DNA of 64,000 nucleotides. It comes from an uncultured bacterium (GTDB lineage: Bacteria; Oederibacteriota; PGYV01; CAWJRG01). Where the stretch lies: contig CAWJRG010000010.1 of assembly GCA_963845185.1 (NCBI GenBank), forward strand, positions 544,001-608,000, in the 5' to 3' direction. The notes beneath the pieces were generated by a model. That model did no database searches, had not been told where the DNA came from, and saw nothing but the letters and a program-made list of their open reading frames with translations. Made by a program: the position numbers and the translations under genes. Positions 6,581 through 31,074 of this stretch are shown piece after piece (within the stretch, counting starts at the first letter, position 1; each line of letters starts with the position of its first letter).

Positions 6581-6608
6581 GTAGAGACGTTTTGCAAAAC
6601 GTCTCTAC
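6581..6608. repeat. 28-bp GTAG-family REP-like palindrome (unoccupied)
   Basis: Perfect palindrome GTAGAGACGTTTTGCAAAACGTCTCTAC. Confidence 0.9.
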
Positions 6609-15479: not shown

Positions 15480-15539
15480 TATACATAAAATAATAGATAA
15501 ATTAGTCCATTATCCCCGAATTTGTAGAGAGGCGGCTTG

Positions 15540-17153
15540 GAGTCTGTCTCAAAACTCTTTTAAACGCCTTGCATTGCCTACACTTATCGCGTTTTTTAGC
15601 CCCTATCTTTATTATTTCTCTTCTTTTCGATTTGTGGTTCTTTTCTTGTCAGGTTGCGAACCTTAATTTAACCTTACCTTCCCTCCACAAGGCATACATT
15701 GTCTTTATGTTATGGGCGGCGCATATAAAAGACCATTGTGTTTTTACGCTTTCGATTCCTCTAACACTAAATCTTGTAAAACCAAGTACGTTTTTTATAC
15801 GTCCCAATAATGGCTCAACTATTGTTTTTCTCTTTCGAAGCTGTTCTTTCCAGTTATTGACCCTAGCTTCTTCTCTGTATATTGACACTATCTCCTCATA
15901 CTCATGCTTATTTGCTTCTATTATCCTTCCGGATTTTACCTTGCTGCATTCGTATTTATAAATACAATCCCTATGATCCCCGCATCGGTATATCATTGTC
16001 TCTTTTCCGTTTTTCTTCTTCCTTATACTGGTATATTCAAGCCTGCCATTTTTAGGACATACATATTCGTTTTTTTCTTTGTCGTATTTAAAATGCGCTT
16101 TGCCATACGGCCTATCGCTGTCATCCTCCGGCAAGTTAACAATTATATTCCTTTTTTCTTCTTTGGCTTTTGCCAGTTCTTCCGGTGAATAATACCCTCC
16201 ATCCGCAAGCGTTACTCCTGATTTTTGTCCGGTATTCGACTCTGCTTTTTCTATCATATCATTCAGCATGTGAGCATCCGATTCCTTGTTTGTCACATTC
16301 TCTGCCACAATTATCTGTTTCTTTGCGTCCACAACAACCTGTGAGTTATATGCCTGTTGCAGTCCTTTACCTCTTGTCATCATGAACCGGCTGTCTCTAT
16401 CTGTGGGGTTTTCAGTTGTTTTTCCTTCACTTTTCATACGTTCTATATGTTCTCTTATTACCTGACGCAGTTTCTCCTTTTCCTGCAATTCTTTTGGCAT
16501 TCCGCACTTACTTTTGCCCTCTTCATCGTCTTGTTCGTCATTTTTCTCAATTTCCACCATTATTTTGTCTATTTCTCTGTCTAATTCTTGTATTTTTTTA
16601 TTCATGTCTTTTATTGTTTTGGTCTTTTCCTTATTTACATCTGCCTGTATTTTTGTGCCGTCCACGGCTTGAATTTCAAAACCAACCAAATTGTTGTTTG
16701 TTGCCACACGCACCGTCTCCTTCAGTAAAACCCTTATCTGCTCTTTATTTCCTTTAAAAAATCTCCATAGCGTATTATGGTCGGGATGATTATTCCCGGT
16801 TATCCATATCATCCCCATTGAATCGTAAGTCATTTTTTCAACTTTTCTGCTGCTCTTTTTTCCTTCCAGTATGCCGTACATCCATGCCCCAAGTAAAAGA
16901 TCTACAAAATATCCCGGTCTTCCGGTTTCTTCTTCCATTTTAAAACCCATCTCTTCAAGCGGTAATTCTTCTACGAATTCTACGACAAATCGAGCTAAAT
17001 GATCTTTTGAAACCCAATCTTCTATTGCCGGTGGCAGTAGATACATTTGATTTCTATCGGCTCTTATCGTTGGCATTTGGTTTCTCCTTCGCTAAATTTT
17101 GAAACCATTATACCATTTATGTCAAAGAATTAAGAGGCTTTTGAGACAGACTC
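15540..17153 (-). mobile_element. IS1182-family IS, copy 1 (1614 bp)
   Basis: TIR GAGTCTGTCTCAAAA / TTTTGAGACAGACTC; TSD CTTG (15536-15539, 17154-17157); flanks rejoin to GTAGAGAGGCGGCTTGCCCCTTCTCTAC. Confidence 0.95.
15649..17076 (-). CDS. IS1182-family DDE transposase
   Basis: LLPPAIEDWV..DHLARFV, PDHNTLWRF, AVDGTKI, LADGGYYS, YVCP, RKTIVEP motifs. Confidence 0.95.
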   Translation of the reverse strand: MPTIRADRNQMYLLPPAIEDWVSKDHLARFVVEFVEELPLEEMGFKMEEETGRPGYFVDLLLGAWMYGILEGKKSSRKVEKMTYDSMGMIWITGNNHPDHNTLWRFFKGNKEQIRVLLKETVRVATNNNLVGFEIQAVDGTKIQADVNKEKTKTIKDMNKKIQELDREIDKIMVEIEKNDEQDDEEGKSKCGMPKELQEKEKLRQVIREHIERMKSEGKTTENPTDRDSRFMMTRGKGLQQAYNSQVVVDAKKQIIVAENVTNKESDAHMLNDMIEKAESNTGQKSGVTLADGGYYSPEELAKAKEEKRNIIVNLPEDDSDRPYGKAHFKYDKEKNEYVCPKNGRLEYTSIRKKKNGKETMIYRCGDHRDCIYKYECSKVKSGRIIEANKHEYEEIVSIYREEARVNNWKEQLRKRKTIVEPLLGRIKNVLGFTRFSVRGIESVKTQWSFICAAHNIKTMYALWREGKVKLRFAT

Positions 17154-17220
17154 CTTGCCCCTTCTCTACAAGAGCGAAATAAAAAAAATCTCCATGCCTT
17201 TCCCTATTCCCTATTCCCGT

Positions 17221-18405
17221 TCATACGCCTTCCCAGGCGTACCTGTATATCTTCATAAGTTTTTCTTTTTCATCCTTATTTCCTTCCATATTTGCCATGC
17301 TCAAATATTTGTCAGCGAATTTTTCGAGCATTTTTTCTTCCACTCCCAAATCCTGCAAATTATCCTTTAAATTAATATCGAGTATAAAATCCTTGAAACC
17401 CACTATGCAGGTTGTTATATACATGCTGTCGTCAACCTTTTCGCATATACCAAAAATCCTTTTTGAAAGCTGTATCACCTTGTCCGGCTTTGTCTCGCCG
17501 AGGTATTTCAGGTAAGCCGGCAGGAGCGCTGCTATACCCGAACCGTGAGCTATATTGTCAAAGTAGCCCGTTATCGCGTGCTCCATCGGGTGCACAACCC
17601 ACGCGCCTGCCCTGCCTGCGTTCGGCAGTCCCATGAGCGCGACCGAGCTTGCGAGCGCAATGTTTGTCCTTGCCTGACTGTCAAACGGGTTCTCAAGTAC
17701 TTTGTACACGTTTTCCATGCAGGTCATTATAATTCCTTCTGTTATCCTGTCCTGCAAATCGCAGTCTGTATCGCCTGTAAAATATTCCTCAAGCACATGC
17801 ATTATTATGTCTATGACGCCTTCTGCCGTAGGTTTCGGCGGTATTGTAAGGGTAAGTTCCGGGTCAAATATGGAAATCTTCGGAAAAAGTTTATCCGGGT
17901 TGTAAATGCCTGCTTTCTCGTTTGTTTTCATGTTTGTAAAAACAGCCGCAGGGTTGCCCTCTGAGCCGCTTGCCGGCAGGGTCGGTATCATAATAATCGG
18001 CAATGCATTACCTATCTGCTTTGCTGTTTTTGAGCCGACAGACATATAATCCCATACCGATCCTCCGCTGCCTGCCACAATGGACGCTCCCTTTGCAGCG
18101 TCCATTGCAGAGCCGCCGCCAAGCCCGATTATGATATCGCAGTTTTCTTTGCTTGCCAGCCCGCCTGCAGCGTCGATCTCCGTGACTTTCGGGTTTGGAG
18201 TAATGTCCGAATAAATCACGAATTTTATACCAGCGGCATCAAGCGATTTTGTCACTTTGTCAAGCGTGCCGGTTTTTTTTACCGAGCTTTTGCCTGTAAT
18301 AATCAGGGCTTTTTTTCCAATGCTTTTAGCTTCTACGCCTGCCCTAGATACTTCTCCAGGCCCGAAAATAAATTTTACCGGGTTATTTAGCGTTATTGTT
18401 CTCAT
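17221..18405 (-). CDS. Iron-containing alcohol dehydrogenase
   Basis: GLGGGSAMDAAK, IPTLPASGSE, HPMEH, IAHG; start trimmed to the ATG with GGAGG RBS. Confidence 0.9.
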   Translation of the reverse strand: MRTITLNNPVKFIFGPGEVSRAGVEAKSIGKKALIITGKSSVKKTGTLDKVTKSLDAAGIKFVIYSDITPNPKVTEIDAAGGLASKENCDIIIGLGGGSAMDAAKGASIVAGSGGSVWDYMSVGSKTAKQIGNALPIIMIPTLPASGSEGNPAAVFTNMKTNEKAGIYNPDKLFPKISIFDPELTLTIPPKPTAEGVIDIIMHVLEEYFTGDTDCDLQDRITEGIIMTCMENVYKVLENPFDSQARTNIALASSVALMGLPNAGRAGAWVVHPMEHAITGYFDNIAHGSGIAALLPAYLKYLGETKPDKVIQLSKRIFGICEKVDDSMYITTCIVGFKDFILDINLKDNLQDLGVEEKMLEKFADKYLSMANMEGNKDEKEKLMKIYRYAWEGV

Positions 18406-18441
18406 TTTTTCCTCCAAGAAAGAGTTTATTTTTTTTCTACA

Positions 18442-18512
18442 GTAGGGGTAATTCACGAATTACCCCGCATTTGTTCTTCATTCGTTTTGGGCGATTCGTG
18501 AATCGCCCCTAC
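18442..18512. repeat. GTAG REP doublet (REPIN-like)
   Basis: GTAGGGGTAATTCACGAATTACCCC plus inverted partner GGGCGATTCGTGAATCGCCCCTAC. Confidence 0.85.
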
Positions 18513-18515
18513 TCT

Positions 18516-18554
18516 TACCCGCTCAAGCCCGAGGCTTTAGCCCGACGAGCGGTA
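18516..18554. repeat. 39-bp TACCCRCTCAAG...AGCGGTA element
   Basis: Similar element of the same length at 29246-29284. Confidence 0.55.
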
Positions 18555-18602
18555 TTAGCATTTTTATTTTACCATAAAAACCGATTTTAAAAACGATATT
18601 AC

Positions 18603-18630
18603 TTGACTTTACCGTTTTATCATATATAAT
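18603..18630 (+). promoter_or_regulatory. Sigma70-type promoter
   Basis: TTGACT-16 nt-TATAAT, followed by AAGGAGG RBS of the lipoprotein gene. Confidence 0.55.
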
Positions 18631-18660
18631 TGTTATATATTTAATTCAAGGAGGAATCCC

Positions 18661-19464
18661 ATGAAAAGAACAGTGATTTTAATTTTTTCAGCCATTCTTG
18701 TTATTTCCCTTATTTTCAGCTGCAGTTCAAACAAAATCAGCCCAACTTCTCCTATCCAGCAGGTTTCAGCGATGAAGAATGGCTGCCAGCAAACGCCGAC
18801 ACTCACTCCAATAGGGCCTGAACCAATAGGGCCTGAGCACCCGTACCCATATGTACCAACAGCAACTGCGACAGCTATACATGTTTGCCCCGGATCAAAT
18901 ACCAATAATGCCTGTAGTTCAAATCAAGGAAATAAATGCGGCTGGGAAAAACACGATAAATTTACCAAAATGTGCCACATACCGTGCTCTGGCGAGCATG
19001 CCGAGGAGTTGAAATGCCTTGATGTGAACATTGTTATGGAAAATCCATATTTCTATACATCCGACAATTATCCGGGGTATTATATAGGCGACCCGATTAA
19101 TTTCGAAGTGCAAATAACAAATAATGGTAAAAAGGACTTTAAAAATCTTGAAGTCATAACAGTTCAGGAATATCATGATTCAGGAATATGCGACAGATGG
19201 TGGGATCCAAATCCTGAGTTTGTTACTATCACTGCAGGCGAGGCTTTGCCGGGTGACCCAACCACAATATGGAAAGATGTTACATTAAAACCAGGCCAGG
19301 AACTTGTGCTTGACGGCACTTATACCCCGCCTATATCCACATGCTCCGGTCTTGACCAGGTAAGCATTGCGATAAAACACGTTAGCGAATGCTCGCACAG
19401 GATGACAACCATATATTATAACCCGGATGCTACGATTTATTGCCCGCCTCCTCCGGCGAAGTGA
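18661..19464 (+). CDS. Cys-rich hypothetical lipoprotein, possible Ig-like C-terminal domain
   Basis: Signal peptide with LIFSC lipobox; P/T-rich linker; FEVQITNNG and TLKPGQELVL beta-sandwich-like motifs. Confidence 0.7.
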   Translation: MKRTVILIFSAILVISLIFSCSSNKISPTSPIQQVSAMKNGCQQTPTLTPIGPEPIGPEHPYPYVPTATATAIHVCPGSNTNNACSSNQGNKCGWEKHDKFTKMCHIPCSGEHAEELKCLDVNIVMENPYFYTSDNYPGYYIGDPINFEVQITNNGKKDFKNLEVITVQEYHDSGICDRWWDPNPEFVTITAGEALPGDPTTIWKDVTLKPGQELVLDGTYTPPISTCSGLDQVSIAIKHVSECSHRMTTIYYNPDATIYCPPPPAK

Positions 19465-19515
19465 TAAGCCGGTATATTTACCAGTCTTTTTAATATTTAA
19501 CCGCCAAAAGAGTTA

Positions 19516-20247
19516 TTATTTATAGATATTCTTATCTATCATCCATATCAAATTTTCTTTTGCCTTAACCATGGCTGCCGGGTATTTCTTTTTTGCCTTT
19601 GCAGACGATGCCAGTATTTCCTTCATTATCCCGCCCTTGCCTTTGCCCGCTATAATATAGAGGACGGTTTTTGAGTTATTGATAAAAGGCAGGGTCATAG
19701 TTATTCTGTCGCGTACAGGGGCATAAGACGGGGCTTTAACCGCTATTATCAGCCTCTTTTTTTCGTTTAATGCTTTTTTATCCTTCGGGAAAAGCGAGGA
19801 TGTGTGGCCGTCCGGCCCCATGCCTGCTATTACAAGGTCAAAACTCGGTTTTGTGTTTATATCCTTGAAAAAATTTTTTATAATGTCCTCATAGCTTAAA
19901 GCCGACTTTTTTGCCGGGCTTATTTCATCCGGCGGCGGTATCATAAATACGTTTTCAGGTGGTATTTTTATTTTTGAAAGCATAGCGTCGTATACAAGCT
20001 TAAAATTACTTTTTTCGTCCTTGAAGCTCACATACCTGTCGTCCTGCCAGAATATAAAAACTCTGCTCCAGTCAATCATACATTTTACCAGGTCCCGGTA
20101 TGTTGGCACAGGGTCGCTGCCTCCTGATACAGCAAGCGTAAAATAACCTTTTTGCCTTATAGTTTTTTTTGCCATATCTGTTATCAAACCCGCTGCCTTT
20201 TTGCTCAATGTTTTTAAATTTTCAAAATGCATTGTTTTTGTTTTCAT
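19516..20247 (-). CDS. pgl: 6-phosphogluconolactonase
   Basis: LAVSGGS, FWQDDRYV, GMGPDGHTSSLFP, RITMT; downstream of zwf. Confidence 0.92.
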   Translation of the reverse strand: MKTKTMHFENLKTLSKKAAGLITDMAKKTIRQKGYFTLAVSGGSDPVPTYRDLVKCMIDWSRVFIFWQDDRYVSFKDEKSNFKLVYDAMLSKIKIPPENVFMIPPPDEISPAKKSALSYEDIIKNFFKDINTKPSFDLVIAGMGPDGHTSSLFPKDKKALNEKKRLIIAVKAPSYAPVRDRITMTLPFINNSKTVLYIIAGKGKGGIMKEILASSAKAKKKYPAAMVKAKENLIWMIDKNIYK

Positions 20248-20274
20248 GTTTTGTCCTTTGTTTTGATTAGGAAC

Positions 20275-20409
20275 ACCCTTCCCCCTCGACGGGGGAAGGT
20301 CTGGATGGGGGTGACGTAGCAGCTGAAAGTATCTATTTTTCAAGCATACCCTTTCTCCATTTTGCCGCTACTTCACCCTCTCCTTTTTCCTCTCCCGTCG
20401 AGGGAGAGG
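20275..20409. repeat. Paired CCCTTCCCCC..GGGGGAAGG / CCTCTCCC..GGGAGAGG palindromic elements
   Basis: Two related hairpin units in inverted orientation; similar pair at 43671-43735. Confidence 0.7.
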
Positions 20410-20420
20410 AGACCTCTAAT

Positions 20421-20453
20421 ATTGCTTCGCTCCATTTGGTCGCTCGCAATGAC
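20421..20453 (-). repeat. GTCATTGCGAG-family half element
   Basis: Reverse complement GTCATTGCGAGCGACCAAATGGAGCGAAGCAAT closely matches 5841-5873. Confidence 0.8.
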
Positions 20454-20466
20454 AAAATTGCACATC

Positions 20467-22017
20467 TTACACCCAGCTCCTGCCGTCTTTTTTTAAAAGT
20501 TCGTCTGCCTCAACCGGGCCCATGTTTCCTGATTCGTATAATTTCAGGAATTTTTTCCTTTTTTCATTGTTGTTTTCAGCGAGTTCATGCAGAACAGGCG
20601 TAAAAACCGCCCACGATGCCTCAAGCCCGTCCTTGCGCCAGAAAAGTGTTTGGTCCCCGAGCATTACGTCAAGCAAAAGCCCCTCATAATCGTCGATCAG
20701 TTCATAGCCCAGCAAATCCGTGTAATTAAAATCCATTCTCACGGTATTGATGCACGTTTTCGGGCCGGGATGTTTTACCTGTACCACGAGCGATACCCTT
20801 TGTTCAGGCTGTATATAAATCTCAAGTATATTCGACGCAAGTTCTGCTTCAGGTATAGGGCAGAACATGCACCGGAAAATCTTTTTGAAGACAACCGAAA
20901 TTTTTGTGCATTTTTCCCCCATCCTTTTCCCTGTTCTTATGTAAAAAGGCACTCCCTTCCACCTTTCATTGTCTATGAAAAGCCTCATTGCCGCGAAAGT
21001 CTCTGTTTTTGAATCTTTTGAAATGCCCGGTTCGTTTATGTACGCAGCCGCGTCCTTGCCCTGTATTTTCCCTGCTGAATATTGTCCAATTATAATTTCA
21101 TCTGTTTTTAACTGCATTATCGGCTTTATTATTTTTGTTCTCTCGTTTCTTGTGGACTCCGGGTCAAAGGCAGCAGGCGGTTCCATCGCAGTCATTGCCA
21201 CAAGCTGCATCATGTGGCTCTGGCACATGTCTCTTATAATTCCTGTTGTGTCAAAATATCCTGCCCTGTGCTCCACGCCTAGTGTCTCTGCCGCGGTTAT
21301 CTGCACATTGTCTATGTACTTGCTGTTCCACACAGGCTCGAATATTAGATTAGCGAACCTCAAGACAAGCATATTTTGTACTGCCTGTTTGCCCAGGTAA
21401 TGGTCTATCCTGTAAATCTGATCCTCAGAAATGAATTTAAGAAGTTTTTCGTTTAATTCCACTGCTGTATTTAAATCCCTGCCGACAGGCTTTTCAACAA
21501 CCACCCTTTTCCATGCTTTTGGATTTTTCTCCACAAGGCAGCATAAGCCAAGGTGTTCTACTATCCCGGGGTATAAATCCGGCGGAGTCGCAAGGTAATA
21601 AACCATGTTGTCCCCTGTATTGTTTCTGGCGCTTAAGTTGTTTATGTCCTGTTTTAGCCCGTCATAGTCTTTCTGGCTGGCGTAATCTCCGCAGTAATAA
21701 TGGCATTTTTTCGCGAATTCAATCCCTGTCGCGTTGTCAGCGCCGTTTGCGTGCTCCCTCAGGCTGGTTTTCACTCTTTCCCTGAAAGATTCGTCGCTCA
21801 TTTTTGTCCTTGCAAATCCTATAACAAAAAAATTTTCGGGAAGTTGTTTCTTTTTATAAAGGTTGTAAAGCGAGGGTATTAGTTTTCTTTGCGTCAGATC
21901 GCCTGACGCTCCGAATATTGCAAACCCGCATGGCCCGGGCAATTGCTGCTCGCAAAAGACAGGTTCTTTCTGCCCGGTTGCAAAGGGAATTTTGATATTT
22001 AAAAATTCTTTATCCAT
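20467..22017 (-). CDS. zwf: Glucose-6-phosphate 1-dehydrogenase
   Basis: GASGDL, RIDHYLGK, VEKP, RWKGVPFYIRTGK. Confidence 0.97.
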   Translation of the reverse strand: MDKEFLNIKIPFATGQKEPVFCEQQLPGPCGFAIFGASGDLTQRKLIPSLYNLYKKKQLPENFFVIGFARTKMSDESFRERVKTSLREHANGADNATGIEFAKKCHYYCGDYASQKDYDGLKQDINNLSARNNTGDNMVYYLATPPDLYPGIVEHLGLCCLVEKNPKAWKRVVVEKPVGRDLNTAVELNEKLLKFISEDQIYRIDHYLGKQAVQNMLVLRFANLIFEPVWNSKYIDNVQITAAETLGVEHRAGYFDTTGIIRDMCQSHMMQLVAMTAMEPPAAFDPESTRNERTKIIKPIMQLKTDEIIIGQYSAGKIQGKDAAAYINEPGISKDSKTETFAAMRLFIDNERWKGVPFYIRTGKRMGEKCTKISVVFKKIFRCMFCPIPEAELASNILEIYIQPEQRVSLVVQVKHPGPKTCINTVRMDFNYTDLLGYELIDDYEGLLLDVMLGDQTLFWRKDGLEASWAVFTPVLHELAENNNEKRKKFLKLYESGNMGPVEADELLKKDGRSWV

Positions 22018-22018
22018 T

Positions 22019-22993
22019 TTATTTTGGTTTTTTATCCGCAGCCGCATGCTTTACTCTGCCCGCGCCTGCATCACTTGTTTTTACGTCTTCGCCTTGTCTT
22101 GCCACTGCATGGCCGCCGAATTCGCGCCTCAGCGCCGCGAGCACCCTGTTGGCGAAAGCATCCTTTTGCCTCGAGTTAAACCTCTTATACAGCGCTGTCG
22201 TTATGACATCCGCGGGTACGCCCGTGTCTATGGCTTCTTTTATGGTCCATCTTGCCTCTCCCGAATCCTCTACAAAACCCTGTATCTCGTCCAGGCCCGA
22301 GTCTTTGTCGAATACATTTTCAAGCAGCTCCAGCAGCCATGAACGCACCACGCTGCCCTGGTTCCATAAATGGGCCACCTGCTGTAAATCGAGCTTGCCT
22401 GCGTAAGGCGATGCCTTTAAAATCTCAAAACCCTCGGCGTACGCTTCCATGAGCCCGTACTCGATGGCATTGTGTATCATCTTTACAAAATGCCCTGCTC
22501 CCGGGCCGCCGCAATACATATACCCGTCTTTCGGCGCCAGGTCTTTTAAAATCGGTTCCATGCGTTTAAAAATTTCTTCCTCGCCGCCCACCATGGTGCA
22601 GTATCCGATTTTAAGCCCCCATATTCCACCGGATACTCCTGCGTCAGCGTAATGTATTCCTGCCTTTTTCAGCTCGTCAAACCTTCTTATGTCTTCCCTG
22701 TATGGCGAGTTGCCGCCTTCAACTATGACGTCACCCTTTGAAAGCAGTTTAACAAGGTCTGCAATATGCTTTTCAGTTACATCCCCTGCCGGCAGCATAA
22801 GCCACACTATCCGCGGGGTTTGCAGTTTCTGTATGAATTCCGCCATAGAATATGCCCCAACAGCACCTTCCTTTTCTATTTCCTTTGTTTTTTCAGCCGT
22901 CCTGTTAAAAGCCACAATATTATGGCCTGCTTTGATGAGCCTTTTTGCCATGTTGCCGCCCATCCTTCCAAGTCCAATCATCCCTAATTGCAT
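22019..22993 (-). CDS. gnd: 6-phosphogluconate dehydrogenase (decarboxylating, short form)
   Basis: IGLGRMGGNM, GVSGG, GAGHFVKMIHN, EDSGEARWT, FGGH. Confidence 0.95.
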   Translation of the reverse strand: MQLGMIGLGRMGGNMAKRLIKAGHNIVAFNRTAEKTKEIEKEGAVGAYSMAEFIQKLQTPRIVWLMLPAGDVTEKHIADLVKLLSKGDVIVEGGNSPYREDIRRFDELKKAGIHYADAGVSGGIWGLKIGYCTMVGGEEEIFKRMEPILKDLAPKDGYMYCGGPGAGHFVKMIHNAIEYGLMEAYAEGFEILKASPYAGKLDLQQVAHLWNQGSVVRSWLLELLENVFDKDSGLDEIQGFVEDSGEARWTIKEAIDTGVPADVITTALYKRFNSRQKDAFANRVLAALRREFGGHAVARQGEDVKTSDAGAGRVKHAAADKKPK

Positions 22994-23021
22994 ATGTGCC
23001 TCCATTTTTTGTCTTTTATTT

Positions 23022-23049
23022 GTAGAGACACGCCATGGCGTGTCTCTAC
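23022..23049. repeat. 28-bp GTAG-family REP-like palindrome (unoccupied)
   Basis: Perfect palindrome GTAGAGACACGCCATGGCGTGTCTCTAC; overlaps the tkt stop codon. Confidence 0.92.
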
Positions 23050-25049
23050 TTTAAATTTAAAATCTTCATTACCTTTTCAACGACATTCTCAACTGTAAAC
23101 CCGTATTTTTCCATTACTATCTCGCCCGGCGCAGACGCGCCGAACTTATCCACGCCTATCACGCAGCCTTCATCGCCTGCCAGGCCTTTCCAGAAATATG
23201 GCGAGCCTGCTTCTATTATAACACGCTTTTTTATTACCGAAGGTATCACGCTTTCCATGTATTGTTCTGATTGTTCCATGAATATTTCGTATGAAGGCAT
23301 TGATACGACCCTTGCTTTTATTTTTTTTGCTTTTAATTTTTCATACGCGCCAAGAGCCAGATGAACTTCAGAGCCTGTCGCAATCAGGATAACATCCGGC
23401 TTATCGCCCGCATCCAGAAGGATATATGCGCCCTTTTCTAAATTTTCAAATATTTTATATTTTTCAAAATCAAGCACAGGCAGATTTTGCCTGGTAAGGC
23501 AGAGTGCTATGGGCCTTTTATTTGCTATAGCATAATTCCACGCAGCCGAAGTCTCGTTTGCGTCAGCCGGCCTTATCACGGTCATGCCGGGTATCATGCG
23601 CAGCGAAGAAAGCTGCTCCACGGGCTGGTGCGTGGGCCCGTCCTGGCCCAGGCCTATGCTGTCGTGAGTAAAAATAAATATCGAGTGGGTTTTCATCAGA
23701 GCAGCAAGCCTTATGGCAGGCCGCATGTAATCGGAAAAAATCAGGAAAGTCGCGCAGTAAGGTATCAAACCGCCGTGAAGCGCGATGCCGTTTGTAATGG
23801 CTCCCATTGCGTGCTCGCGCACGCCGAAATGCATATTCCTCGCGCATCCGCTTGCCACGCCTATATCTCCGTAGCCGTGAAGCAGTGTTTTTGTAGACGG
23901 GCTCAAGTCAGCCGAGCCTCCCATGAATTCAGTCATGTATTTCTCTATGTTATTCATGACTTTTTCCGAAGCAACCCTTGTAGATACAGGCCCGTCCTTT
24001 GGGAAAAATTCCAGAAAATTTTCCGTCAGTTTCCTGTTCACGCGGCCTTCCATGTATTTGTTTAAAAGCTCAACCTGTTCCGGGTTATTTTTCCTGTATT
24101 TTTCCACAAGCTCGTGCCAGTTCTTTACTTTTTCATCAGTATCTGACTCAAGCCGTTTAAAATGCGCGTAAACTTCTTCCGGCACAAAAAAACTTTTATC
24201 AGCCGGCCAGCCGAATTTTTCCTTTGTTTCTTTCACGCCTTCTTCTCCCAGGGGCTCGCCATGCGCCGCGCCTGTATCCTGTTTTGGTGAACCAAATCCT
24301 ATGTGCGTGCGAACTATTATGAGCGAAGGTTTTTGTTTTTCCCCTCTTGCTTCTTCTAATGCTTTTGCTATGTCCTCAATGTCGTTCCCGTCTGCAATTT
24401 TAATTGTTTGCCAGCCGTATGCGTCAAAACGCTCAGCAACGTTTTCGCCGAAAGTAATCGAAGTATCGCCTTCTATTGATACATGGTTTTCGTCGTAAAG
24501 GTAAATGAGTTTCCCTAGTTTCATTGTGCCTGCAAGCGACGCGGCTTCAGAAGATATCCCTTCCATCAGGTCGCCGTCAGACACAATAGCGTAGGTATAA
24601 TGGTCTATTATTTTTAAATCAGGCGTGTTAAAGCAGTCCCCCAGCACTTTTTCAGCTATTGCCATGCCCACACCCATGCCAAAACCCTGGCCAAGCGGCC
24701 CTGTCGTGGCTTCGATTCCGGGCGTAAGCCCGTATTCGGGATGGCCCGGTGTTATGCTGCCATACTGCCTGAACTTTTTCAGGTCGTCCATTGTAATGCC
24801 ATAACCGTATAAGTGTAAAAGTGAATATAACAGCGCACAGCCGTGTCCTGCTGAAAGTATGAACCTGTCCCTGTCCACCCATTTCGGGTTTTCAGGTGAG
24901 TGTTTTAAAAATTTGGAAAATAAGACATAAGCCATGGGCGCTGCGCCAAGCGGCATGCCAGGATGCCCTGACTTTGCCTTTTCCACCATGTCTATGGAAA
25001 GCATGCGTAAAGTATTTATGCAAAGCTCGTCAATATTGTTTTCAGCCAT
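23046..25049 (-). CDS. tkt: Transketolase
   Basis: SGHPG, RDRFILSAGHG, TPGHPE, TTGPLGQG, DGDLMEG, GVREHAM, DGPTHQP. Confidence 0.97.
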   Translation of the reverse strand: MAENNIDELCINTLRMLSIDMVEKAKSGHPGMPLGAAPMAYVLFSKFLKHSPENPKWVDRDRFILSAGHGCALLYSLLHLYGYGITMDDLKKFRQYGSITPGHPEYGLTPGIEATTGPLGQGFGMGVGMAIAEKVLGDCFNTPDLKIIDHYTYAIVSDGDLMEGISSEAASLAGTMKLGKLIYLYDENHVSIEGDTSITFGENVAERFDAYGWQTIKIADGNDIEDIAKALEEARGEKQKPSLIIVRTHIGFGSPKQDTGAAHGEPLGEEGVKETKEKFGWPADKSFFVPEEVYAHFKRLESDTDEKVKNWHELVEKYRKNNPEQVELLNKYMEGRVNRKLTENFLEFFPKDGPVSTRVASEKVMNNIEKYMTEFMGGSADLSPSTKTLLHGYGDIGVASGCARNMHFGVREHAMGAITNGIALHGGLIPYCATFLIFSDYMRPAIRLAALMKTHSIFIFTHDSIGLGQDGPTHQPVEQLSSLRMIPGMTVIRPADANETSAAWNYAIANKRPIALCLTRQNLPVLDFEKYKIFENLEKGAYILLDAGDKPDVILIATGSEVHLALGAYEKLKAKKIKARVVSMPSYEIFMEQSEQYMESVIPSVIKKRVIIEAGSPYFWKGLAGDEGCVIGVDKFGASAPGEIVMEKYGFTVENVVEKVMKILNLK

Positions 25050-25096
25050 TTTTATACCACCGACTCTATATTTTTTAATTGTAGAGACACGCCATG

Positions 25097-26710
25097 GAGT
25101 CTGTCTCAAAACTCTTTTAAACGCCTTGCATTGCCTACACTTATCGCGTTTTTTAGCCCCTATCTTTATTATTTCTCTTCTTTTCGATTTGTGGTTCTTT
25201 TCTTGTCAGGTTGCGAACCTTAATTTAACCTTACCTTCCCTCCACAAGGCATACATTGTCTTTATGTTATGGGCGGCGCATATAAAAGACCATTGTGTTT
25301 TTACGCTTTCGATTCCTCTAACACTAAATCTTGTAAAACCAAGTACGTTTTTTATACGTCCCAATAATGGCTCAACTATTGTTTTTCTCTTTCGAAGCTG
25401 TTCTTTCCAGTTATTGACCCTAGCTTCTTCTCTGTATATTGACACTATCTCCTCATACTCATGCTTATTTGCTTCTATTATCCTTCCGGATTTTACCTTG
25501 CTGCATTCGTATTTATAAATACAATCCCTATGATCCCCGCATCGGTATATCATTGTCTCTTTTCCGTTTTTCTTCTTCCTTATACTGGTATATTCAAGCC
25601 TGCCATTTTTAGGACATACATATTCGTTTTTTTCTTTGTCGTATTTAAAATGCGCTTTGCCATACGGCCTATCGCTGTCATCCTCCGGCAAGTTAACAAT
25701 TATATTCCTTTTTTCTTCTTTGGCTTTTGCCAGTTCTTCCGGTGAATAATACCCTCCATCCGCAAGCGTTACTCCTGATTTTTGTCCGGTATTCGACTCT
25801 GCTTTTTCTATCATATCATTCAGCATGTGAGCATCCGATTCCTTGTTTGTCACATTCTCTGCCACAATTATCTGTTTCTTTGCGTCCACAACAACCTGTG
25901 AGTTATATGCCTGTTGCAGTCCTTTACCTCTTGTCATCATGAACCGGCTGTCTCTATCTGTGGGGTTTTCAGTTGTTTTTCCTTCACTTTTCATACGTTC
26001 TATATGTTCTCTTATTACCTGACGCAGTTTCTCCTTTTCCTGCAATTCTTTTGGCATTCCGCACTTACTTTTGCCCTCTTCATCGTCTTGTTCGTCATTT
26101 TTCTCAATTTCCACCATTATTTTGTCTATTTCTCTGTCTAATTCTTGTATTTTTTTATTCATGTCTTTTATTGTTTTGGTCTTTTCCTTATTTACATCTG
26201 CCTGTATTTTTGTGCCGTCCACGGCTTGGATTTCAAAACCAACCAAATTGTTGTTTGTTGCCACACGCACCGTCTCCTTCAGTAAAACCCTTATCTGCTC
26301 TTTATTTCCTTTAAAAAATCTCCATAGCGTATTATGGTCGGGATGATTATTCCCGGTTATCCATATCATCCCCATTGAATCGTAAGTCATTTTTTCAACT
26401 TTTCTGCTGCTCTTTTTTCCTTCCAGTATGCCGTACATCCATGCCCCAAGTAAAAGATCTACAAAATATCCCGGTCTTCCGGTTTCTTCTTCCATTTTAA
26501 AACCCATCTCTTCAAGCGGTAATTCTTCTACGAATTCTACGACAAATCGAGCTAAATGATCTTTTGAAACCCAATCTTCTATTGCCGGTGGCAGTAGATA
26601 CATTTGATTTCTATCGGCTCTTATCGTTGGCATTTGGTTTCTCCTTCGCTAAATTTTGAAACCATTATACCATTTATGTCAAAGAATTAAGAGGCTTTTG
26701 AGACAGACTC
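25097..26710 (-). mobile_element. IS1182-family IS, copy 2 (1614 bp)
   Basis: Same TIRs; TSD CATG (25093-25096, 26711-26714); flanks rejoin to GTAGAGACACGCCATGGCGTGTCTCTAC. Confidence 0.95.
25206..26633 (-). CDS. IS1182-family DDE transposase
   Basis: Protein identical to 15649-17076; one synonymous difference noticed (16672 vs 26229). Confidence 0.95.
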   Translation of the reverse strand: MPTIRADRNQMYLLPPAIEDWVSKDHLARFVVEFVEELPLEEMGFKMEEETGRPGYFVDLLLGAWMYGILEGKKSSRKVEKMTYDSMGMIWITGNNHPDHNTLWRFFKGNKEQIRVLLKETVRVATNNNLVGFEIQAVDGTKIQADVNKEKTKTIKDMNKKIQELDREIDKIMVEIEKNDEQDDEEGKSKCGMPKELQEKEKLRQVIREHIERMKSEGKTTENPTDRDSRFMMTRGKGLQQAYNSQVVVDAKKQIIVAENVTNKESDAHMLNDMIEKAESNTGQKSGVTLADGGYYSPEELAKAKEEKRNIIVNLPEDDSDRPYGKAHFKYDKEKNEYVCPKNGRLEYTSIRKKKNGKETMIYRCGDHRDCIYKYECSKVKSGRIIEANKHEYEEIVSIYREEARVNNWKEQLRKRKTIVEPLLGRIKNVLGFTRFSVRGIESVKTQWSFICAAHNIKTMYALWREGKVKLRFAT

Positions 26711-26762
26711 CATGGCGTGTCTCTACTTTAACTGTCCTTATGAAAATATCGTGGGATAATCG

Positions 26763-31046: not shown

Positions 31047-31074
31047 GTAGAGACACGCCATGGCGTGTCTCTAC
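31047..31074. repeat. 28-bp GTAG-family REP-like palindrome (unoccupied)
   Basis: Identical to 23022-23049. Confidence 0.92.

Follow-up and report, generated by a model that had tools for sequence, protein, structure and literature searches.

An IS1182-family insertion sequence at the centre of GTAG-headed REP-like palindromes in an uncultured Oederibacteriota bacterium

We analyzed a 64,000-nucleotide stretch of DNA (the window) from an uncultured bacterium (GTDB lineage Bacteria; Oederibacteriota; PGYV01; CAWJRG01), together with the assembly to which it belongs (GCA_963845185.1; 3.50 Mb, 11 contigs, 99.4% complete). The window corresponds to C10:544001-608000 and contains two copies of a 1614-bp insertion sequence (IS). 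Very probably, this IS is an active IS1182-family element with a DDE transposase that integrates at the dyad axis of GTAG-headed palindromes resembling repetitive extragenic palindromic (REP) sequences. As established by comparing occupied and empty sites, integration occurs at the dyad with duplication of the central 4 bp and leaves the arms intact, and the palindromes form an intergenic repeat family of the bacterial order that existed before the insertions and is not part of the IS. Below, C5, C6, C9 and C10 are contigs of this genome, G-numbers denote genomes of relatives and L-numbers denote loci in relatives.

Results

The element and its transposase

The two window copies (15540..17153 and 25097..26710, both on the minus strand) are each 1614 bp long and differ by one mismatch, at element position 1133. 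Their ends are perfect 15-bp terminal inverted repeats (GAGTCTGTCTCAAAA), located in copy 1 at 15540-15554 and 17139-17153. The coding content is a single open reading frame (ORF) of 475 amino acids, on the minus strand in both copies (15649..17076 in copy 1 and 25206-26633 in copy 2). Its product matched the curated NCBIfam model for IS1182-family transposases (NF033551; 354 bits against a cut-off of 270, residues 6-462), while scores for the IS5 and ISNCY models were far under their cut-offs. Pfam analysis identified PF05598 (DUF772, N-terminal), PF01609 (DDE_Tnp_1) and PF13751 (DDE_Tnp_1_6), each above cut-off. D139, D292, E421 and K428 were invariant in an alignment of 30 relatives, as were four cysteines located between D292 and E421; D139/D292/E421 would represent the DDE catalytic triad and the four-cysteine stretch a putative zinc-binding insertion. 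Among 1293 homologs, the nearest outside this genome shared 74-75% identity. Homologs bearing a name at NCBI belong to the IS1182 family, and named plasmid-borne members of that family were at most 32% identical to this transposase at the protein level. IS1182-family elements have a single ORF, a length of ~1.3-2 kb and short terminal inverted repeats, a layout shared by the element described here. On these sequence features, it is assigned to the IS1182 family.

Target sites in the window and genome

Copy 1 is flanked on the left by GTAGAGAGGCGG (15524-15535) followed by CTTG (15536-15539), forming the target half at 15524..15539, and on the right by CTTG (17154-17157) followed by CCCCTTCTCTAC (17158-17169), forming the half at 17154..17169. 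The target of copy 2 belongs to a REP-like repeat that we term type A, with GTAGAGACACGC and CATG on the left (25081..25096) and CATG and GCGTGTCTCTAC on the right (26711..26726). Three empty members of the repeat family are also present: a type-B palindrome with a TGCA centre at 6581..6608 (C10:550581; GTAGAGACGTTTTGCAAAACGTCTCTAC) and two type-A palindromes at 23022..23049 (C10:567022) and 31047..31074 (C10:575047), both identical to the copy 2 target.

A BLAST search of the genome detected 14 full copies and one truncated copy, all at least 99.75% identical. The transposase ORF is intact in 13 of the 14 full copies, with two stop codons in the copy at C5:41091. The truncated copy (C6:25533-26983) is without positions 1-163; a CAAG-CCCCTTCTCTAC half-site remains on its intact side, and the sequence on the other side is unrelated. 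All full copies are located at the exact centre of a 12+4+12 palindrome, with an arm complementarity of 7-12 out of 12; 7/12 is reached by 3695 of 200000 random genome positions (1.8%). The same 4-mer is present on both sides, as a direct 4-bp duplication, in 12 of the 14. GAGA occurs at positions -9 to -6 from the 4-mer in 28/28 half-sites, the N14 spacing is kept at all 14 sites, and the strict motif GTAGAGA-N14-TCTCTAC fits ten of them. Type A (GTAGAGACACGC-CATG-GCGTGTCTCTAC) holds seven full copies, the GGCGG/CTTG/CCCCT palindrome occupied by window copy 1 holds three, and degenerate relatives of the latter on contig C9 hold another three. The remaining copy (C10:499748) is found in a terminator-like AAAGAGACGGGA-CCAG-TGCCGTCTCTTT palindrome without a GTAG head. 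Two same-orientation copies lie 36 bp apart at C9:604166-607429 (604166/605816), each in its own degenerate palindrome, representing a repeat doublet with both members occupied.

A first-pass annotation of the window, made from its letters alone, had described the two copies with their CTTG and CATG duplications, named the three empty palindromes, assigned the element to the IS1182 family and considered it recently active. The first three of these points were recovered by our analysis, and the near-identity of the copies and their intact ORFs fit recent activity. That annotation had also held that its idea would fall if most other copies lay outside such palindromes; all 14 full copies lie within them. 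The pattern expected of a REP-targeting IS, with every copy at the dyad centre of a repeat family that also exists empty, was thus found at 14/14 sites.

Empty palindromes and the origin of the arms

Within this genome, 59 empty palindromes with AGAG arms were counted, including 21 with a CATG centre, eight with TGCA and 18 with a 5-nt centre. The repeat subfamilies B to D have the same GTAGAGAC heads and never hold the IS. GTAGAGA-N14-TCTCTAC was also detected in 7/40 relatives, none with a strong IS match (eight in G019, four in G023, 31 in G040 and one each in G004, G009, G016 and G017), and the reversed-pattern control gave 0. G040, from the same phylum and another family, contains its 31 GTAGAGACGCAAAATTTTGCGTCTCTAC-type palindromes without an IS match, indicating that more than one family of the phylum has the GTAGAGAC head.

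In relatives of the same order, the GGCGG/CTTG type is common as an empty repeat. G014 contains 98 matches to the 22-base pattern GAGAGGSGG-CWWG-CCSCCTCTC with at most two mismatches (reversed-pattern control 0). The single IS copy of that genome, 75% identical to ours, is seated in a GGCGG/CTTG-type repeat with a direct CTTG. G006 has an IS that is ~65-73% identical in the matched pieces and lies inside GTAGCCGCGAAC-TTCA-GTTCGCG with a direct TTCA. Between copies in the studied genome with bodies differing at no more than 4 of 1614 positions, the arms differ at 2-5 of 12. The body variants 1133G, 978T and 1360A are common to different flank types, and bodies with zero differences occur in three of them. 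Together, the 59 empty palindromes, the empty repeats in relatives, the divergence of the arms and the body variants shared across arm types show, at the level of sequence, that the arms are halves of the target rather than ends of the IS. The further possibility raised in the first-pass annotation, that the arms move with the element, is contradicted by identical palindromes standing empty both here and in relatives without an IS match.

One locus, C5:33868-33919, is the sole GGCGG/CTTG-type palindrome in this genome that does not adjoin the IS. At the same central position, a 23-bp insert with inverted ends of 5 bp lies between direct copies of CTTG, which suggests an earlier insertion by something else. 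Neither of the 12-base ends of this insert recurs beside an IS.

Genomic context and orientation

A crude ORF map, in which ORFs take up 90% of the genome, served to judge intergenic status. All 15 IS copies lie outside these ORFs, as do 54 of the 59 empty palindromes, of which 44 are found between co-directional genes. This distribution fits the proposal in the first-pass annotation that the repeats serve as an intergenic safe haven. The genome has a strong GC skew and gene-strand bias, and in 13/15 copies the transposase gene points the same way as the leading strand (binomial p=0.007). For the perfectly palindromic type-A sites, the proportion is 6/7 (p=0.125). Replication- or transcription-coupled insertion, or rapid selection, could account for this bias.

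The repeats have the GTAG head, palindromic stem and many intergenic copies that mark REPs. A search for the Y1 (RAYT) transposase domain PF01797 gave 0 matches in this genome, despite ~60 GTAG-headed palindromes; PF01797 is present in four of five REP-bearing relatives tested (G014, G019, G023 and G040). Given the lack of a RAYT match in this genome, we term the repeats REP-like; they may be orphaned.

Site choice and hairpin structure

Occupancy differed between repeat subfamilies, as assessed by Fisher tests. Among CATG-centred repeats, seven of 28 are filled, as are six of seven CTTG/CAAG-centred (CWWG) repeats, compared to 0 of 8 with a TGCA centre and 0 of 18 with a 5-nt, N15-spaced centre. 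The difference was significant between type A and the TGCA and 5-nt groups combined (p=0.010), between type A and the 5-nt group alone (p=0.032) and between CWWG and type A (p=0.006). The comparison of type A with TGCA alone (7/28 vs 0/8) was not significant (p=0.31) and to that extent weighs against our reading. Predicted DNA folding energies ranged from -10.8 to -13.7 kcal/mol for the unused B, C and D repeats and from -3.6 to -7.6 kcal/mol for the fully occupied GGCGG-type sites. Hairpin stability as a driver of subfamily use was rejected, as the unused repeats fold more strongly than the sites that are all occupied. The occupancy pattern and this mismatch in stability suggest, as a correlation, that a strong hairpin does not suffice and that the enzyme requires an even palindrome with N14 spacing, GAGA in the arms and a centre bounded by C and G (CATG, CTTG/CAAG or CCAG). 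The earlier suggestion that the transposase measures from the repeat arms is consistent with GAGA on both sides and N14 spacing at all 14 sites and with the empty N15 repeats; measurement as such stays a correlation.

An alternative is that structure by itself directs insertion: any extruded hairpin or cruciform would be cut at its loop, as for IS1272 and TnSha1, and GTAG repeats would simply be the commonest hairpins available. IS1272 and TnSha1 do use hairpin targets without a sequence consensus, the copy at C10:499748 occupies a terminator-like hairpin without a GTAG head (1/14), the palindrome at G006/L013 is without GAGA, and the 13/15 replication-relative orientation may reflect hairpins extruded on one template strand. 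Against these observations, the IS is absent from the most stable and abundant hairpins, those of subfamilies C and D (18 copies, -13.5 to -13.7 kcal/mol), and present in all of the weak ones, and the GAGA motif recurs in every half-site. Moreover, ~46/65 sites of the distant relatives described below have arms matching at fewer than 8/12 positions and have 4-bp repeats nonetheless, which argues that the enzyme does not need a hairpin. We consider targeting by structure alone unlikely.

Distant relatives in other phyla

We inspected 80 loci encoding relatives 31-46% identical to the transposase. Both element tips could be placed in 65; 12 loci without a recognizable tip and three with unsuitable length or a missing flank were left out. 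The tips are conserved (GAGNCTGTCTCAAAA). Direct 4-bp repeats were found at 33/65 loci and an inverted 4-mer at 7/65. Arms paired at 8/12 or more positions at 19/65 loci compared to four at a control offset, and a GTAG/CTAC head occurred at the expected distance at 18/65 loci compared to 2/63 controls. All these counts are not independent, as many of the loci come from few related bins (Dehalococcoidia), and they carry correspondingly less weight for our reading. The GTAG-headed loci belong to bins assigned to WOR-3, Opitutales, Thermodesulfobacteriota, Aminicenantes, Pyrinomonadaceae, UBP15, Dehalococcoidia and one ‘archaeon’. Empty GTAGGG palindromes were abundant in four of five distant hosts (80, 296, 129 and 18 vs 7, 0, 1 and 5 in the control) and not enriched in the fifth (7 vs 5). 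G044 contains exact empty copies of the palindrome that is split by L033 with a GGCC duplication.

Other arrangements were observed in the same set. Five loci from Dehalococcoidia bins (L050, L064, L066, L068 and L086) interrupt a common non-palindromic sequence at one and the same position (...GAAAAGTTCGCAGT to the left and ...CAGTACACGTAGGCCCACC to the right), which suggests that this subgroup uses a specific non-palindromic target. Four further elements (L017, L032, L049 and L069) lie nested in the middle of long inverted repeats (67, 99, 109 and 227 bases), and at L049 another IS end abuts the long inverted repeat.

These data invite a broader proposal, namely that a cross-phylum IS1182 lineage is specialized on GTAG REPs, that it reads each half-site with the surface that also recognizes its own ends, a REP thus mimicking two abutted IS ends, and that insertion is coupled to replication. 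TGTCTC at positions 6-11 from the type-A dyad is in the same register as TGTCTC from the IS tip, and leading-strand co-orientation holds for 13/15 copies despite the commonest target being a perfect palindrome. Across the clade, positions 6-11 matched at 0.425 in the dyad register compared to 0.23-0.35 elsewhere (19 loci), a weak signal for which base composition may account. We regard the proposal as improbable in this full form. If true, the lineage would live on repeats spread by Y1 transposases and, as a group of DDE enzymes, would parallel their strand bias and hairpin reading.

Element boundaries and insertion at random

Another account of the palindromes places the arms inside the element. 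The true IS would then be ~1646 bp long with 31-bp inverted ends starting from GTAG, and its excision, or elements once joined end to end, would have left the 28-bp palindromes behind. Some features point in this direction: with the exception of the odd C5 locus, GGCGG/CTTG half-sites are found in this genome only beside IS ends, identical imperfect arms occur in three copies, the 75%-identical IS of G014 has closely similar arms, and the flanks of several relatives are inverted up to the tips without a direct repeat. The account is nevertheless largely refuted and, in our judgement, very improbable. Arms vary between near-identical bodies and IS variants are independent of arm type, no duplication exists outside GTAG...CTAC, the palindromes are abundant in IS-free genomes and outnumber the IS by 98 to 1 in G014, and subfamilies B to D have the heads and never the IS. 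Random insertion followed by selection, in which survivors persist only in harmless repeats, agrees with the intergenic location of all sites but is refuted by positional precision, since it cannot yield base-exact centring at 14/14 sites when ~10% of the genome lies outside crude ORFs and there are fewer than 100 palindrome centres.

Empty alleles and inverted four-base repeats

Further observations weigh against integration at the dyad of pre-existing repeats as we propose it. An empty palindrome of the GGCGG/CTTG type was not found in this genome, and its status as a target rests on the relatives. No orthologous pair of empty and filled alleles was seen for any site; the collection searched contained no genome of the same genus or family and 24 genomes of the order. 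Two metagenome runs (word shares 0.40 and 0.22) gave seven short contig pieces with loose ends matching the type-A flank, and these data, consisting of short contigs only, revealed neither a joint across the IS nor an empty allele. Scans of metagenome contigs with the copy 1 left flank and with the IS left end gave 0 hits each. Among the distant relatives, 25/65 loci showed neither a direct nor an inverted 4-mer. Finally, two of the 14 full copies have reverse-complement 4-mers, which a simple staggered cut is not expected to produce: C9:5406 (plus strand, CAAG|IS|CTTG) and C9:604166 (minus strand, CTTG|IS|CAAG), both with well-paired arms.

For these two copies, a single 600-kb inversion with both loci as reciprocal products was considered and rejected. 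Although swapping the right halves restores CAAG/CAAG and CTTG/CTTG, neither GC skew nor gene strand changes across 604-607 kb, and pairing of the swapped arms would drop to 7 and 6 of 12 positions from the present 9 and 8. As conjectures, two other routes seem likelier: an inverted REP doublet with an IS in each member may have collapsed, or gap repair may have switched templates across the palindrome. The tandem pair at C9:604166/605816 and the inverted arrangement of nine of the ten listed doublets in G014 lend some support to doublet collapse. Tobes and Pareja (2006, PMC1525189) explained imperfect repeats of ISRm22, an IS4-family element, by recombination between its copies.

Other repeats in the genome

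Two repeat types distinct from the palindromes were noted. One is a family of 15 copies sharing 60 or more bases that start with TCTCAGGAACAGGTAGAGAAAAAAGACATCGG (for example, C10:61225, C10:72982 and C9:1039), probably the end of a different mobile element. The other, at C9:480909-485085, looks like a tandem-repeat protein gene: near-identical units, each beginning with ACAGCGATAGTAGTAGAGACA, follow one another over a long stretch at spacings that are multiples of 72 bp.

Discussion

Our data are best described by an IS that inserts into the middle of a symmetric repeat without destroying it. The 4-bp centre is duplicated and a 12-bp arm is left on either side of the element, as would result from a two-fold symmetric transpososome making 4-bp staggered cuts centred on the axis. 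Site choice would probably depend on recognition of the two half-sites, or of a tight hairpin tip of four bases, by a symmetric complex. If the site were extruded as a cruciform, the same reaction would equal an attack at the 5' side of both loops. With an intergenic repeat as target, each insertion would cause little damage, and the element may in this way have reached 15 copies.

Elements with related behaviour are known, as the first-pass annotation had correctly stated for REP targeting in IS3 and IS110 and hairpin targeting in IS1182. Within the IS1182 family, hairpin targeting is established for IS1272/TnSha1 of staphylococci (Wan 2017, PMC5678879; Furi 2016, PMC4923244). IS1272/TnSha1 and the present IS share the transposase family and inverted-repeat or hairpin targets, often downstream of genes (PMC5678879, PMC4923244). 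IS1272 generates no duplication, its stem-loop is partly or wholly deleted or replaced and its targets are without a common sequence, according to the same reports (PMC5678879, PMC4923244). In contrast, the IS described here keeps the arms, duplicates the 4-bp centre and uses a single repeat family with fixed spacing. Attack at both loops, if a cruciform were formed, would correspond to ‘pathway c’ of the hairpin model drawn for IS1182-family elements, in which loop duplication is one outcome (Wan 2017, PMC5678879). Wan 2017 (PMC5678879) and Furi 2016 (PMC4923244) further cite Siguier 2015 for some IS1182 members that target palindromes, a statement that in the accessible parts of both papers comes without details or mention of REPs. 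The behaviour reported here is probably the same at the family level. A 4-bp direct repeat is also recorded for ISPse1 and MITEPye1 and is typical of the family, as in this IS; ISPse1 has 1653 bp and 16/16 inverted repeats, compared to 1614 bp and 15 bp in our element.

Beyond the IS1182 family, ISPsy8 (IS3) and ISRm22 (IS4) insert at REP centres with short duplications (3 bp and 6 bp; Tobes and Pareja 2006, PMC1525189). Along with IS1397/ISKpn1 (IS3), they resemble our IS in that every copy lies in a REP, at the symmetry axis and with a short duplication, and differ in having other transposase families and Proteobacteria hosts (PMC1525189). The REP-targeting families surveyed there are IS3, IS110, IS4, IS256 and IS5, and the term IS1182 is absent from the accessible part of the survey (PMC1525189). 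GTAG-tagged REPs form a known super-family (Di Nocera 2013, PMC3733652), described in a paper where the accessible text likewise does not use the term IS1182. Our repeats resemble the GTAG REPs and REPINs of RAYT (Y1) transposases in their GTAG head, 12-14-bp stem and intergenic location (PMC3733652), and the inverted doublets of G014 recall REPINs. Unlike RAYT-mobilized REPs and REPINs, they occur in a genome without a Y1 transposase match. Our literature search, in which subscription journals were poorly covered and ISfinder and TnPedia lay outside, found no paper joining IS1182 with REPs. Precedents thus exist both for IS1182 members that target hairpins or palindromes and for IS3, IS4 and IS110 members that target REP centres, and they lower the novelty of our observations. 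What the data support as new is an IS1182-family element with the centre of GTAG REP-like palindromes as its target. The subfamily and spacing selectivity, the cross-phylum association, the orientation bias and the puzzle of the inverted 4-mers are modest additions.

For annotation, the results warn against taking the 12-bp arms beside such elements for IS ends, as they are halves of the target. Use as an integration tool, which the first-pass annotation had put forward, is speculative since the specificity is for a repeat family and not programmable. For the biology of these elements, our findings add the IS1182 family to the IS families that use REPs as landing pads, and they offer a useful contrast to IS1272, a member of the same family that destroys its hairpin target. 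With 14/14 base-exact insertions and filled and empty subfamilies side by side, the genome provides a clean natural data set, one suited to the question of how a DDE transposase reads a symmetric target, be it by spacing, centre sequence or structure.

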